In this document: positions 34,345 through 40,695 of the stretch, in pieces
Position numbering within the stretch: the first letter of the stretch is position 1
Layout of the letters: each line of letters opens with the position of its first letter
Virus record (IMG/VR): IMGVR_UViG_3300005613_000019
Location: 1 to 64,000 of that record
DNA: 64,000 nt
Reading direction: 5' to 3' (one strand)
From: a virus
Notes under the pieces: model-generated
Told to the model about the DNA's origin: nothing
Database searches by the model: none
What the model saw: only the letters and a program-made list of their open reading frames with translations
Translations under genes and position numbers: made by a program

Positions 34345-35199
34345 TTAAAGATCATCATCTTCTTCAGAAGTAAGATCATCAAGAAACTTATTAGCAAAGT
34401 TTTTAACGCTCTTATAAACACCCTTAGTAGAAATATATTCCCAATCTTCTAAAGAAAGTTCTGGTAAAAGCATTTCTAGTTCTTCTACAAAATCTCCAGC
34501 TTTAATCCTCATAGGACCTTGATCACGAGAAGCTTTATGACACAACCCTACAACAGTAGGATTAATCTCAATAGCTTTCTCAGCTTTTTCCATAGCATCC
34601 TCTAACTCTGAAGCACGTTGTCTTTGTAACCTATCAGAAGGCATTTCCTCCTTATTTTGCAACCCACTCTTAAGCTTAAGAGCCTTACCAAGCTCATAAT
34701 CAAACGTTGTATTATTTCTATCCGCAATACGTTCATAATATTCAATATACTCATCTTCAGTAATAGTTCTCAGAGCTTGAGGAGACCTAGTAACTAACTT
34801 ACGAAAATCAGGACTTGTTTTAATAACCTCAATAGGAACCTCATTGGTCAAATTATAAGGTCTTCGAGTCTTAGGAATAATAACATGATATTCATCACCA
34901 CCTAATCCTTTAAAGGAAATAGATATTTGTGAATTAAGCATATTTTGAACAAAAATTTCAGAATTTTCAGTAAAATATTTAGAAAAATTAACAATAAGTT
35001 TACTTCTTTTACTTGTCGTTTGTTTAGGAATAGTCATATAATCATCTCCAACTTCTCCCTTTAATTGTAAAATAAAAGGGTCACGGCAAAACACTTTAGC
35101 TTTACCTTTTTTTATTAATATACGCGATTTAGCTGGATTTGTATAAGATAAAAACTTATTATTAGAATCTAATACAGGAATATTATTATCTTTACCCAT
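34345..35199 (-). CDS. protein with N-terminal PLMP/RRXRR-like domain fused to an unknown helical domain
   Basis: 'IPVLDSNNKFLSYTNPAKSRILIKKGKAKVFCRDPFILQLK' follows the IscB/IsrB N-terminal pattern; no RuvC or HNH motifs seen. Confidence 0.65.
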   Translation of the reverse strand: MGKDNNIPVLDSNNKFLSYTNPAKSRILIKKGKAKVFCRDPFILQLKGEVGDDYMTIPKQTTSKRSKLIVNFSKYFTENSEIFVQNMLNSQISISFKGLGGDEYHVIIPKTRRPYNLTNEVPIEVIKTSPDFRKLVTRSPQALRTITEDEYIEYYERIADRNNTTFDYELGKALKLKSGLQNKEEMPSDRLQRQRASELEDAMEKAEKAIEINPTVVGLCHKASRDQGPMRIKAGDFVEELEMLLPELSLEDWEYISTKGVYKSVKNFANKFLDDLTSEEDDDL

Positions 35200-35258
35200 A
35201 TTACCAGCCTTCGCTGACCTCTTACTTATAAAACATAAGTAAGGTTTAACTCTTTTTA

Positions 35259-35312
35259 TAAAATAAAGGACAACGGCCAGGGAAAGGAGGGGGAAACCTG
35301 ACCGCTGCCCTT
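35259..35312 (-). terminator. 16-bp hairpin/terminator after the major capsid gene
   Basis: AAGGGCAGCGGUCAGG pairs with CCUGGCCGUUGUCCUU (4 G-U pairs); 15-nt loop; followed by UAUUUUAU. Confidence 0.7.
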
Positions 35313-35324
35313 AAAACCTAATTA

Positions 35325-36521
35325 CTACTTAGAACCCTTAGCAGCAGCTTTAGCATTCGGAGCACCAAAACCAACCATCTCAAGAAACACCCAACCTTTA
35401 CGAGTCTCACCAAGAGCATACTTATTATAAGGCTCAGAAAACAGAGAAATACGTTCACCCATCTCACCGAGATAATCAGGGCCGGTACATGCATAAAAAG
35501 TTCCAGCAGGAATGACTTGCTCAACACCTGTACCTGCAGCCGTCAAGATCTGAGCATTTAACAGATTACCAATATGGCCAGCCAAAAGAAGCTCACGCTC
35601 ACTAACTGGGTCAACTGCAGTAGACATATTCTTGATAATATCAGAAAGCTCAGCACGATTAATAAGAAATTGCTCTACCAAAAGTCTGTGCTGCTCAACT
35701 TGAAAACGAACATCCTCGAAAGCACCAACTCCCAAAGAAGCAAACGTAGTAGTAGTATTTACAGCAGTAGACAACCTATCAAGAAGATCAATACCGAGCT
35801 TATCTTCTTGAAGTTCAATCTCCTGACGAGCTGTATCCTGAGCACGCTCCAGAACATCAAAGTTCATTTGATAAATGTCCATAATGTCGATAGCCGGAAA
35901 AGATGTAATCTTTTGCTCATTCGGAGTGATCCATTTGGTCTTAATCTTGGCTTCAGGAGTTTGACCGTCCTGACCAATGGTATAAGCAACCGAACGGATG
36001 TCTTTCGGGATACGGAACAGTTCGGCCTGGCCGAGCTGACGTACACGATAGATCTTCCTCGAAAAACCCTCGTAATCAAGGATAGCCTTAATCGGAAGAG
36101 CCAGCTCTTGACCAACCACTCGGAGTCCTTGCTCAGAAGGATCTTTAAGAGCGGCAGCCAAAATCTCACGGCGTTGATCCAAGGAGTAACTTGCAGATTC
36201 AGGAGTAGCAAAAGTCAGGCGACCTGCATTCCTCTTAGTATGGTTATTCAACAGATGAGAAACTTGAACAAGCGCATCACGCTTATCATAAGCATTAAGC
36301 TCACCATCAGAATCAAACATACGACGGGAAGTATCAGACGACGTAACGTTTCTACTAGAATCGTAGTCAAATCCTTGTGGGTTAAAAGTTCCATTCCCCT
36401 CAAAAAGAGATTCGTCTTGCTTATCAGCCATTTTCGTACGAGGACGAACAGCTAAACGACGAGGCTCTTTCGTTTCCTGAGAGGGTGTCTTTGATGCTAA
36501 TTTTCTATACGGATTATCCAT
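35325..36521 (-). CDS. major capsid protein (HK97 fold) with N-terminal prodomain
   Basis: Follows protease-scaffold-decoration genes; motifs 'LALPIKAILDYEGFSRK' and 'ERAQDTARQEIELQED'; strong codon bias; tandem stops TAG TAA. Confidence 0.9.
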   Translation of the reverse strand: MDNPYRKLASKTPSQETKEPRRLAVRPRTKMADKQDESLFEGNGTFNPQGFDYDSSRNVTSSDTSRRMFDSDGELNAYDKRDALVQVSHLLNNHTKRNAGRLTFATPESASYSLDQRREILAAALKDPSEQGLRVVGQELALPIKAILDYEGFSRKIYRVRQLGQAELFRIPKDIRSVAYTIGQDGQTPEAKIKTKWITPNEQKITSFPAIDIMDIYQMNFDVLERAQDTARQEIELQEDKLGIDLLDRLSTAVNTTTTFASLGVGAFEDVRFQVEQHRLLVEQFLINRAELSDIIKNMSTAVDPVSERELLLAGHIGNLLNAQILTAAGTGVEQVIPAGTFYACTGPDYLGEMGERISLFSEPYNKYALGETRKGWVFLEMVGFGAPNAKAAAKGSK

Positions 36522-37363: not shown

Positions 37364-39229
37364 CTATGCCTTTAGCCTCTTGAGAGCGTTACTACGCTTA
37401 CTCAATCTTGTGTTACCCATAGCTGCTCGAACTCCACCAACTAAATTATTATTTGTGGTAGAGGCATCAGGTCTACCAGTATTTACTTGAAAATTACCCT
37501 CTACAGCAGCCGTCTTTAAATTATCTCTAGACGCAGACTTAAAGGATTCTTCAGAAACTTCAACAGATTTAATATTAAGATTATTAAAATCAGACTCTAG
37601 GTCATTAAGATATTCATCAGATTTCTTCATAAGACCTGCAGTTCTCTCTAACAATATATCAACAAAATCTTCTTGGCCAGTAGAAGCTATCATTTCAATA
37701 AGTTCACTCGCATCAGATTGCGGCATACCTATATAAGCATCACCATTAGCAAAATTTTGTTGATTAGCTAAAACGTCCATAGAAGCTGCTTTATAAGGGT
37801 TCTCGTCATAATTAAGCAACATTCTAGTAGAAGCAAGTTTAACACATTTTACAAATTTTTTAATAAATTTCTCATTAGCCTCTTTAGCTAATTTTTTAGC
37901 TTTAGCTGTATAAAGCTTTTTAATATTAGCCTCTACACTCTGAAAATCAACATCAGAGCCTTCCTGAGAAGAATCAGCTGCTTGATCTAAAGACTCAGTA
38001 TGAACAGTATCTTCACCTTTCAAAATACTATCAGGCTTACTATCATAATTAGGATCAGTAACAAACTCAGCATCAGATTCAACACCTGCAATAACTTTAT
38101 CATAAGTTTCCTTAGTATTAAACTCAGCACCATCAGGAATAGTCTCAGAAGGATCATCTAAATCATCTTTAACTAAGTCATCCCCATCTTCATGTATCGG
38201 TTCAGAGGCTTCAGGCGTTAGCATCTCATCAAAAACCGGTTGAACATCATCATCAACACCCGCAATTAAAGTTGTATTAGCACGCTTAGCTGCAACTTTA
38301 GGACCCTCATAAATAATCCAACCATAGATTTGATTAGCTTTTCTCTTAAGATAATCTAAATTAGACTTATCTTTTGGTCTAGCAATAAAAAGAGGTTTAC
38401 CCTCAAAAGAAGCTAAAATATCTCTTCTAGGAAGAACTCTAACAGTGACCTTAGAGGCTGTTTTAGGGTCTTTAATACCCATATACTTAAGATTTGCATC
38501 TTTTTTATCTTCCTCTTTTTTATCTTCCTCTTTTTTATCTTCCTCTTTTTTATCTTCCTCTTTTTTATCTTCCTCTTTTTTATCTTCCTCTTCCTTCATC
38601 TGAGCAACTCTATCCAATAATTCTTCTTTATCAGATTTATCTAAGTCTTTCTTATCTTTCTTATCTTTCTTAAAATCGTCTTTCTTATCTTCCTTAAAAT
38701 CGTCTTTCTTATCTTCCTTAAAATCGTCTTTCTTATCTTCCTTAAAATCGTCTTTCTTATCTTCCTTAAAATCGTCTTTCTTATCTTTGTCCATAGAAGG
38801 CTCCATATCAAATTCCAGAGGTTTAATATCAGGTTTAGAATCAATAACCTCTTCAACTGGATTTATTAATTTATCATCAGCAAAAGAACCATCCATATCT
38901 TTATCAAGACAAGGAAGATCTGACTTCGTATTCATATCAGAACCAAGATCCAAACCTAATGAGGGTTTATCCGAATTAAACTTACCAGAATCTTCCAAAA
39001 ACCTAGAAACCATCATATAAGCATCATCAGGATTTTCAGACATCTTAAGGTCTTCCAACAACTTGTCAAAACCAGGAGGAGCCATCATCGCATATTTACG
39101 ACCAGCAGAATTCAAAAGATCCCTAGTCTCAGATTCAATAATAGATCTCTCAGAGGCTGTTAAAGAAGCTTTACCCTCTTCATGGATATTAAGAACAGTC
39201 TCAAACAGTTTTATCCTGTCAATACTCAT
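37364..39229 (-). CDS. capsid scaffold protein
   Basis: Highly charged, low complexity, between protease and capsid genes. Confidence 0.65.
   Translation of the reverse strand: MSIDRIKLFETVLNIHEEGKASLTASERSIIESETRDLLNSAGRKYAMMAPPGFDKLLEDLKMSENPDDAYMMVSRFLEDSGKFNSDKPSLGLDLGSDMNTKSDLPCLDKDMDGSFADDKLINPVEEVIDSKPDIKPLEFDMEPSMDKDKKDDFKEDKKDDFKEDKKDDFKEDKKDDFKEDKKDDFKKDKKDKKDLDKSDKEELLDRVAQMKEEEDKKEEDKKEEDKKEEDKKEEDKKEEDKKDANLKYMGIKDPKTASKVTVRVLPRRDILASFEGKPLFIARPKDKSNLDYLKRKANQIYGWIIYEGPKVAAKRANTTLIAGVDDDVQPVFDEMLTPEASEPIHEDGDDLVKDDLDDPSETIPDGAEFNTKETYDKVIAGVESDAEFVTDPNYDSKPDSILKGEDTVHTESLDQAADSSQEGSDVDFQSVEANIKKLYTAKAKKLAKEANEKFIKKFVKCVKLASTRMLLNYDENPYKAASMDVLANQQNFANGDAYIGMPQSDASELIEMIASTGQEDFVDILLERTAGLMKKSDEYLNDLESDFNNLNIKSVEVSEESFKSASRDNLKTAAVEGNFQVNTGRPDASTTNNNLVGGVRAAMGNTRLSKRSNALKRLKA
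38501..38590. repeat. 6 x 15-bp tandem repeat encoding EEDKK
   Basis: ttttttatcttcctc repeated six times perfectly. Confidence 0.95.
38669..38787. repeat. ~5 x 24-bp tandem repeat encoding EDKKDDFK
   Basis: cttaaaatcgtctttcttatcttc repeated about five times. Confidence 0.95.
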
Positions 39230-40263: not shown

Positions 40264-40695
40264 CTAATCTTTACCAAAAAGAAGTTTTTTATTAGTCTCA
40301 AATCGTTTTACTGGAATACTAATATCTAAAATTCCATTATTAAATGAAACTTTTGAATTCTCTAAATCTAAATCCCTGTATACCTTAATCTCATGATGAA
40401 ACTTACTCCTAAATTTCTCTGAAATATTTTCCCTAGAAGTATTATCAGCCATTATATGCAACTTATCGGCTTCATTCCATACTTTAATATCAGACTCATC
40501 GTACCCAGCTAAAGCAAGCTGAATACTCCAGCCCTTTAAAACATCATCATCACTATCTGGATCAATAATAGGAAACTTGTCCATAGGCGGCTTAGTTAAT
40601 GTAGGCCAACTACCAAAAAAGTCGTTGAACAAACAATCAAAATCATTGAACAGGGAAGACATTCTTACGGTTGGATAAACGATTCTCGGTAACAT
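40264..40695 (-). CDS. small heat-shock protein (Hsp20/alpha-crystallin family)
   Basis: Motifs 'IQLALAGYDESDIKV' and 'VSFNNGILDISIP'; aromatic N-terminal arm. Confidence 0.85.
   Translation of the reverse strand: MLPRIVYPTVRMSSLFNDFDCLFNDFFGSWPTLTKPPMDKFPIIDPDSDDDVLKGWSIQLALAGYDESDIKVWNEADKLHIMADNTSRENISEKFRSKFHHEIKVYRDLDLENSKVSFNNGILDISIPVKRFETNKKLLFGKD

Follow-up and report, generated by a model that had tools for sequence, protein, structure and literature searches.

The open reading frame (ORF) at 34345–35199 on the minus strand of the window, as we call the whole 64,000-nucleotide stretch of DNA that was analysed, encodes 284 amino acids followed by a stop codon and comprises three parts: an N-terminal PLMP domain, a linker and a core. 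These coordinates and the N-terminal peptide quoted in an earlier note on this DNA are all correct. So is the position directly after the major capsid gene given there, as the adjoining upstream gene (35325–36521, minus strand) matches the major capsid family phrog_2522 with E 5.7e-56. The PLMP-core gene is flanked by the capsid gene on one side and by a 214-amino-acid phage gene on the other. Farther upstream of the capsid gene there are a decoration-like gene and the genes for an acidic repeat protein, a head maturation protease, an Hsp20 protein and the portal protein, and the PLMP-core gene has its place within the head module after the capsid gene and ahead of the neck genes. The source IMG/VR record has 97,991 bp and is estimated to be 56% complete; a close relative is available as a complete genome of 175,002 bp with terminal repeats. 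A scan of GTDB genomes found no relative, and therefore gave no clue to a host or prophage.

Several neighbouring genes deserve mention in their own right. The Hsp20-type small heat-shock gene (40264–40695, minus strand; phrog_432, E 5e-11) is located inside the head module, in the interval from the portal region to the maturation protease. Between the protease and the capsid gene, a 621-amino-acid protein (37364–39229, minus strand) contains long acidic/lysine tandem repeats built of DDFKEDKK and EEDKK units; it has no family match and is probably scaffold-like. Two genes downstream of the PLMP-core gene, in the structural block, the segment 32487–33593 (minus strand) holds three small genes of 106, 116 and 149 codons, whose products appear by eye to be membrane or coiled-coil proteins, and which may represent an unusually located lysis cassette.

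The N-terminus of the ORF is a genuine IscB/IsrB-type PLMP domain. It comprises residues 5–52 (35044–35187, minus strand), contains four strands and one basic helix, and is identified by Pfam, profile, fold and tblastn evidence. Residues 7–54 match positions 1–48 of the 174 positions of the Pfam RRXRR profile (PF14239) with 33.8 bits and E 3.8e-8, the curated cut-off being 25 bits. When the profile of the phage family is compared with solved chains, the PLMP domain of TbaIscB is matched with E 6.9e-7 and six more IscB chains with E 0.008–0.02. The AlphaFold2 model shows strands at residues 7–10, 16–20, 34–38 and 43–46 and the helix at residues 22–30, and the best nine Foldseek matches to it among solved structures are all IscB or IsrB. 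The VIA aligner, which is independent of Foldseek, likewise places IscB chains first, with Z 7.5 (rmsd 3.3 Å over 48 residues, 42% identity) and Z 7.1 (rmsd 1.3 Å over 45 residues), and aligns DtIsrB with Z 6.5. The PLMP pattern had been read from the letters in the earlier note, and both comparisons that were to decide on it, the RRXRR profile and the predicted structure against IscB, bear it out.

A tblastn search of 72,556 plasmids with the 47-residue domain yields eight records at 43–50% identity, seven of them annotated as iscB and one as an HNH endonuclease; the identity to solved IscB PLMP domains is 38–42%. The eponymous P-L-M-P motif is replaced: the aligned positions read F-L-S-Y, and the family motif is F-L-S-Y-T for P-L-M-P-T. 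In the family alignment S18 is invariant, and F16, L17 and Y19 are nearly so. Invariant residues K24 and R26 are located in the basic helix, A-K-A-R-I-L-I-K-K-G-K-A. A word-based search of limited sensitivity for short or otherwise-fused PLMP proteins gave only family members and one fragment of 53 amino acids.

The nuclease parts that follow PLMP in the known enzymes are missing, as the earlier note had stated for RuvC, the bridge helix and HNH. Nothing in the ORF matches RRXRR profile positions 49–174, which comprise RuvC-I and the arginine-rich helix, there is no Pfam HNH match in the ORF at E ≤ 1, and the model of the core finds no RNase H-like match among solved structures. The omega RNA family HEARO (RF02033) has no match at E ≤ 10 in 34900–35800; as a positive control, the same Rfam search finds HEARO at 85–167 bits upstream of five of five plasmid iscB genes. 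This phage record and three relatives (G001–G003) contain one RRXRR match each, above the curated cut-off and always within profile positions 1–51, and no IscB, HEARO RNA or further RRXRR match was found in the phage genomes checked. The matches to Pfam RuvX (E 0.092) and to the phrog families ‘baseplate’ and ‘HNH’ (E 0.006–0.018) were judged to be noise or PLMP-only matches. RuvC was considered as a partner of PLMP and rejected, being absent from the 56%-complete record and far from the head module in the complete relative.

The core (residues 72–284; 34348–34986, minus strand) contains a small alpha/beta domain, long charged helices, a C-terminal helical bundle and an acidic tail. It had previously been described as helical; the model corrects this, with the small alpha/beta domain preceding the helical bundle. 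Modelled alone from a 102-row alignment, the core reaches a pLDDT of 93.9, and residues 60–278 match positions 4–223 of the 225 positions of phrog_17686 with E 2.7e-11. A Foldseek search of the PDB with the core alone gives no match at E ≤ 0.001, a wide VIA search gives at best Z 7.1, to generic helical repeats, and a search of the ESM Atlas gives no usable match. GINS subunits recur in the fold searches, with probabilities below 0.2. Among the predicted viral structures of BFVD, the core matches uncharacterised proteins of the phages PaBG, Motura and BcepSaruman (Foldseek E 2e-9), and hhalign of the core against PaBG_00154 (PaBG gp154) gives a probability of 95.9%. These relatives have approximately 205–245 amino acids, lack the PLMP domain and begin where the short isoform described below begins. 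The gene of PaBG gp154 is surrounded by primase, RecB/Cas4 and RuvC genes and is far from the PaBG capsid gene (gene 80). In the clade studied here the core is most likely a head-assembly or head-associated protein, because of the fixed position of its gene.

The fusion of PLMP to this core is conserved. Alignment of 17 full-length homologues with 42–81% identity (alignment A1) shows the same length and architecture throughout, with PLMP as the best conserved stretch and M55 invariant. A profile search of 1.84 billion representatives returned 365 matches, which include apparent core-only proteins starting at profile positions 60–69. An intact in-frame PLMP is present just upstream in 33 of the 34 loci fetched with such proteins, which shows the short database entries to be genes called from an internal start rather than unfused genes; judging from these sequences, the ‘core-only’ proteins of the databases appear to be mostly start-site artefacts. 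The N-terminal domain is thus carried by the 17 homologues as well as by these 33 loci, which answers in the affirmative the question, raised earlier, of whether orthologues possess it. In total, an intact in-frame PLMP is found in 42 distinct ORFs from uncultured phages, down to 28% identity.

The gene order is equally stable: protease, decoration-like gene, capsid gene and PLMP-core gene follow each other in 34 of 34 further loci, with capsid identities of 44–71%. Two near-complete genomes of the phage clade have 163–175 kb. Phage Rctr197k, at 28% identity, shows the same PLMP-core architecture after its putative capsid gene. Over those pairs in which synonymous divergence is not saturated, dN/dS has a median of 0.27 for PLMP as against 0.43 for the core, which at the level of the coding sequences shows PLMP to be under purifying selection. 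The earlier note proposed that an RNA-binding module had been domesticated into the head operon; PLMP may have come from an IS, but transfer in the other direction is also possible.

The Rctr197k homologue (L002:5995–7134; KX853510, Rctr197k_050) is an intact frame of 380 codons with a Q/G-rich insertion in the core, and its record holds only a misc_feature ‘similar to hypothetical protein’. A stand-alone PLMP-like ORF of 71 amino acids, with 24–27 bits to Pfam RRXRR, occurs in an 88-kb fragment of another phage (L012:3965–4180, plus strand). It is located between a decoration-like and a capsid-like gene, its stop codon overlaps the Shine-Dalgarno (SD) sequence of the latter, and no core gene was found in this fragment.

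PLMP and the core are connected by a linker (residues 53–71; 34987–35043, minus strand), which is predicted to be disordered (pLDDT < 50 for residues 50–72) and which holds an internal ribosome-binding site. An SD-like GGAG at 35046–35049 (minus strand) is positioned 8 nt before an ATG at 35035–35037 (minus strand), which encodes M55 and is the predicted start of a core-only isoform of 230 amino acids. The earlier note had pointed to this GGAG-preceded ATG and to a possible second isoform without PLMP; the former is indeed present, and the latter gains strong comparative support, since an in-frame start in the linker is found in 42 of 42 distinct ORFs, as ATG in 41 and as GTG after AAGGAGG in one. 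The internal start is preceded at 5–9 nt by GGAG, AGGGAGG, AAGGAGG or a similar sequence. Its predicted anti-SD pairing is at or beyond the 5th percentile of its own ORF in 33 of 41 cases, the reference being all in-frame positions of the same ORF, and the internal SD is stronger than that of the first start in 33 ORFs. In Rctr197k and in a further locus (L010) the peptide before the methionine differs, yet the GGAG is kept in another codon phase, which points to selection on the nucleotides. Two nested isoforms, the second being a core-only product, are likely on this comparative evidence.

The first start is placed in a different environment. From the capsid stop codon to the first ATG the leader forms three predicted hairpins, with z −3.1 for the whole leader. 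Hairpin H1 (35266–35312, minus strand), a GC-rich stem of 16 bp after the capsid gene, is followed by a U-rich tract at 35258–35265 and looks like a terminator. Its 15-nt loop (35282–35296) exposes an anti-SD-like CCUCCU, and comparison of 11 loci shows a conserved loop on a stem of varying sequence. The loop is a candidate for pairing with SD sequences and could bind that of the first start or the internal one. In the window and in loci L003–L025 the H1 stem covaries around the conserved CCUCCU.

In hairpin H2 (35219–35244, minus strand) the 5′ arm, ACCUU or ACCUC, pairs with a purine run, AAGAGG or GGAGG. The AAGAGG at 35218–35223 (minus strand), part of which is in the 3′ arm of H2, is likely to be the SD of the first ATG, judging from its position and conservation; it is the only plausible SD for this start, from which it is separated by H3. 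Hairpin H3 (35204–35217, minus strand) is a 5-bp stem with a four-base loop, UCAGC-GAAG-GCUGG, and ends 4 nt before the first ATG. The H3 motif occurs once in the window and is conserved with compensatory changes (GGC/GCC, AGC/GCU), and in H2 compensatory changes affect seven of the eight pairs.

A 13-sequence alignment of the leader has 98.8% of its cells paired, with compensatory changes in 8 of the 14 pairs. The observed values are not equalled by any of 500 shuffles, and pairing in slid controls amounts to 21–47%; the alignment was fitted to the covariance model, and this biases the figures towards the structure. The covariance models R1 and R2 find one match per locus, always adjoining the start, and no other match in the 64-kb window at E < 1. 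R2, the model of H2 and H3, does not reach the second subgroup, Rctr197k or L010. In the second subgroup, reading by eye alone shows a comparable hairpin, ACCCCGC...GCGGGAGG, and another one that covaries. H2 and H3 are both missing from the sole locus that lacks PLMP (L067), where the terminator is followed by a plain AAGGAGG-ATG at which the core gene begins. In another locus (L016:212–310, plus strand) part of the leader and of the first codons is present twice: H3 is followed by the short ORF MTSKNIPVLGSKWL and a stop codon, and some 40 nt farther on the full gene starts anew.

Comparison of the leader with Rfam gives only noise and no family match. Applied to five real iscB loci, R2 finds nothing significant (at most 11 bits, E 0.12), and homology of the leader to the ends of omega RNA is therefore unsupported. 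Real iscB leaders differ from H2 in that their SD is unpaired after the last hairpin.

These features can be combined in a model in which a conserved late gene makes two nested proteins and the PLMP domain of the long form binds its own leader and sets the ratio of long to short form. We regard the chances of this model as evenly balanced. The long form of 284 amino acids would be translated from the weak first ATG, embedded in RNA structure, and would carry PLMP on the flexible linker; it would probably be a regulated minor species. The short form of 230 amino acids would be made from the conserved internal SD and ATG and would represent the core alone. PLMP would probably clamp the hairpins just upstream of its own start codon, by analogy with IsrB and IscB, the candidate targets being H2 and H3, which include or flank the SD, or the terminator H1. 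Such binding would feed back on translation or on read-through, and in this way on the ratio of the two proteins.

SL7 and SL8, two terminal hairpins in tandem, are bound by the PLMP domain of IsrB, and SL7 holds the SD of the isrB ORF, for which the authors suggested a role in regulating expression (PMC9581776). In IscB, PLMP recognises the terminal hairpins mainly without sequence specificity (PMC9640706). A review calls the function of PLMP still unclear (PMC10734217). The analogy with these enzymes makes PLMP binding of the phage leader plausible. In both of them, PLMP works inside a large ribonucleoprotein, where it packs against RuvC and TI, and its RNA contacts may therefore not stand alone; moreover, the P-L-M-P motif of IscB, which touches both RuvC and RNA, is the site where the phage domain has F-L-S-Y. 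The location of the PaBG homologue of the core, which sits among replication genes and not head genes, was counted against this model, as were the missing homology of the leader to omega RNA ends, the unpaired SD of real iscB leaders, the limited reach of the model of H2 and H3, and the stand-alone PLMP ORF of L012, which has no such hairpins. That PLMP is a self-sufficient RNA-hairpin-binding module, which together with the covarying leader would form a minimal switch reading its own ribosome-binding region or the capsid terminator, and so setting the ratio of nested head proteins, appears doubtful to us.

The main rival to the binding of the leader is that PLMP serves as a structural adaptor without RNA feedback, which we consider possible though somewhat unlikely. 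The core would be head-associated and a minority of its subunits would carry PLMP as a protein- or DNA-binding handle inside or on the capsid, directed for instance towards packaged DNA, the portal or the capsid protein, and the hairpins of the leader would merely keep the long form rare. A similar logic is known from nested phage genes whose long and short products have the C-terminal part in common, and the rival reading agrees with the fixed place of the gene between the capsid and neck genes and with a weak, structured first start as opposed to a strong internal one. The core, however, matches no known capsid, decoration or connector fold, and the PaBG homologue is encoded in a replication/recombination region. 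A handle would be in line with the extensive protein contacts which PLMP also makes in IscB and IsrB (PMC9581776, PMC9640706), and with the stand-alone PLMP ORF of the 88-kb fragment, which adjoins a capsid-like gene and has no such leader hairpins; but the covarying SD-sequestering hairpin and the tetraloop hairpin of the main family are explained by it no better than by a plain weak ribosome-binding site.

In another, purely inferential and very improbable reading, PLMP acts on the translation machinery. Its fold would resemble the N-terminal domain of IF3, a likeness which has been reported for PLMP (PMC9581776); the Foldseek rows to IF3 in 30S complexes obtained here are weak (5lmn_X and 9a5a_B, probability 0.44–0.51). 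With the anti-SD loop of H1, the long form or a stand-alone PLMP would then bias initiation on late mRNAs. The conserved CCUCC loop and the position of the stand-alone PLMP ORF directly before a capsid-like gene fit this proposal, but the domain is far closer to IscB PLMP (E 7e-7, 38–42% identity) than to IF3. The notion of a decayed IS remnant, i.e., the leftover 5′ end of an IscB, IsrB or IshB gene with an N-terminal frame open by chance and only the internal ATG in use, which the earlier note had held up as the outcome that would refute it, is hardly credible: gene callers do often begin at the internal ATG, and the internal SD is usually the stronger one, but the scenario is excluded by a PLMP frame intact in all 42 distinct ORFs down to 28% identity and forming the best conserved part of alignment A1 and by the PLMP dN/dS of about 0.27, a start codon keeps the same spacing to the domain and to H3, and the phage genomes checked contain no IscB, HEARO RNA or further RRXRR match.

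A gene whose long product may bind its own leader can be compared with known systems of several kinds. Nested phage genes with an in-frame internal start include lambda C/Nu3 and the dual starts of holin and antiholin. The PLMP-core gene is like the C/Nu3 type in having one frame, two starts and a shared C-terminal part, with the long form probably in the minority; it differs in that what the long form gains at its N-terminus is the RNA-contacting domain of RNA-guided nucleases, and its two products are predicted from the genes alone. Leaders bridged by a hairpin or sequestering the SD are represented by ribosome-binding sites of the type of T4 gene 38 or gene 25. The phage leader resembles these in placing a small hairpin between SD and AUG and in pairing the SD within another hairpin upstream, whereas it differs in having a specific covarying architecture of three hairpins, with the anti-SD loop in the terminator of the preceding gene.

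The PLMP domains of IscB, IsrB and IshB share with the phage domain the fold of about 48 amino acids, the homologous sequence, the N-terminal place and the helix A-K/R-A-R-x-L-x-K-x-G-K-A, and in IscB and IsrB, as in the phage, the coding sequence of PLMP follows closely on hairpins that adjoin its start codon. Unlike these proteins, the phage PLMP is joined to a non-nuclease core where they have RuvC and/or HNH, has no bridge helix and no HEARO or omega RNA, is set in a capsid operon whose adjoining genes show no IS context, carries F-L-S-Y for P-L-M-P and can be bypassed through an internal start.

In the literature cited here, including PMC10734217, PLMP is described only in IscB, IsrB and IshB. 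The phage gene shows a known domain in a new architecture and combines it with an unclassified leader RNA and what is probably a dual start, in a large clade of uncultured phages. The same domain, kept under purifying selection without a nuclease or omega RNA and beside a covarying RNA at its own start, provides a reduced natural system in which the function of PLMP can be approached. The analysis also leads to a correction in the annotation of a widespread family of phage genes, since PLMP is hidden in many database entries that take the internal codon as the start. For this clade it defines a conserved gene with two starts and an as yet unclassified motif in the leader RNA. If the reading as a switch were true, the contact of PLMP with terminal hairpins in OMEGA systems would be found here stripped of the nuclease, as a simple test system for PLMP, and the possibility would be raised that IscB-type nucleases recruited PLMP from such a regulatory module and not the reverse.

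The interval between the capsid and PLMP-core genes is itself variable in some phages. In two loci, L058:676–5800 (plus strand; on the same contig as L010) and L036:4135–5812, several genes are inserted at this place, and the insert of the former includes a Mom-family/Vsr-like/HTH protein and an HNH endonuclease, which suggests that the interval is a hotspot for mobile insertions.
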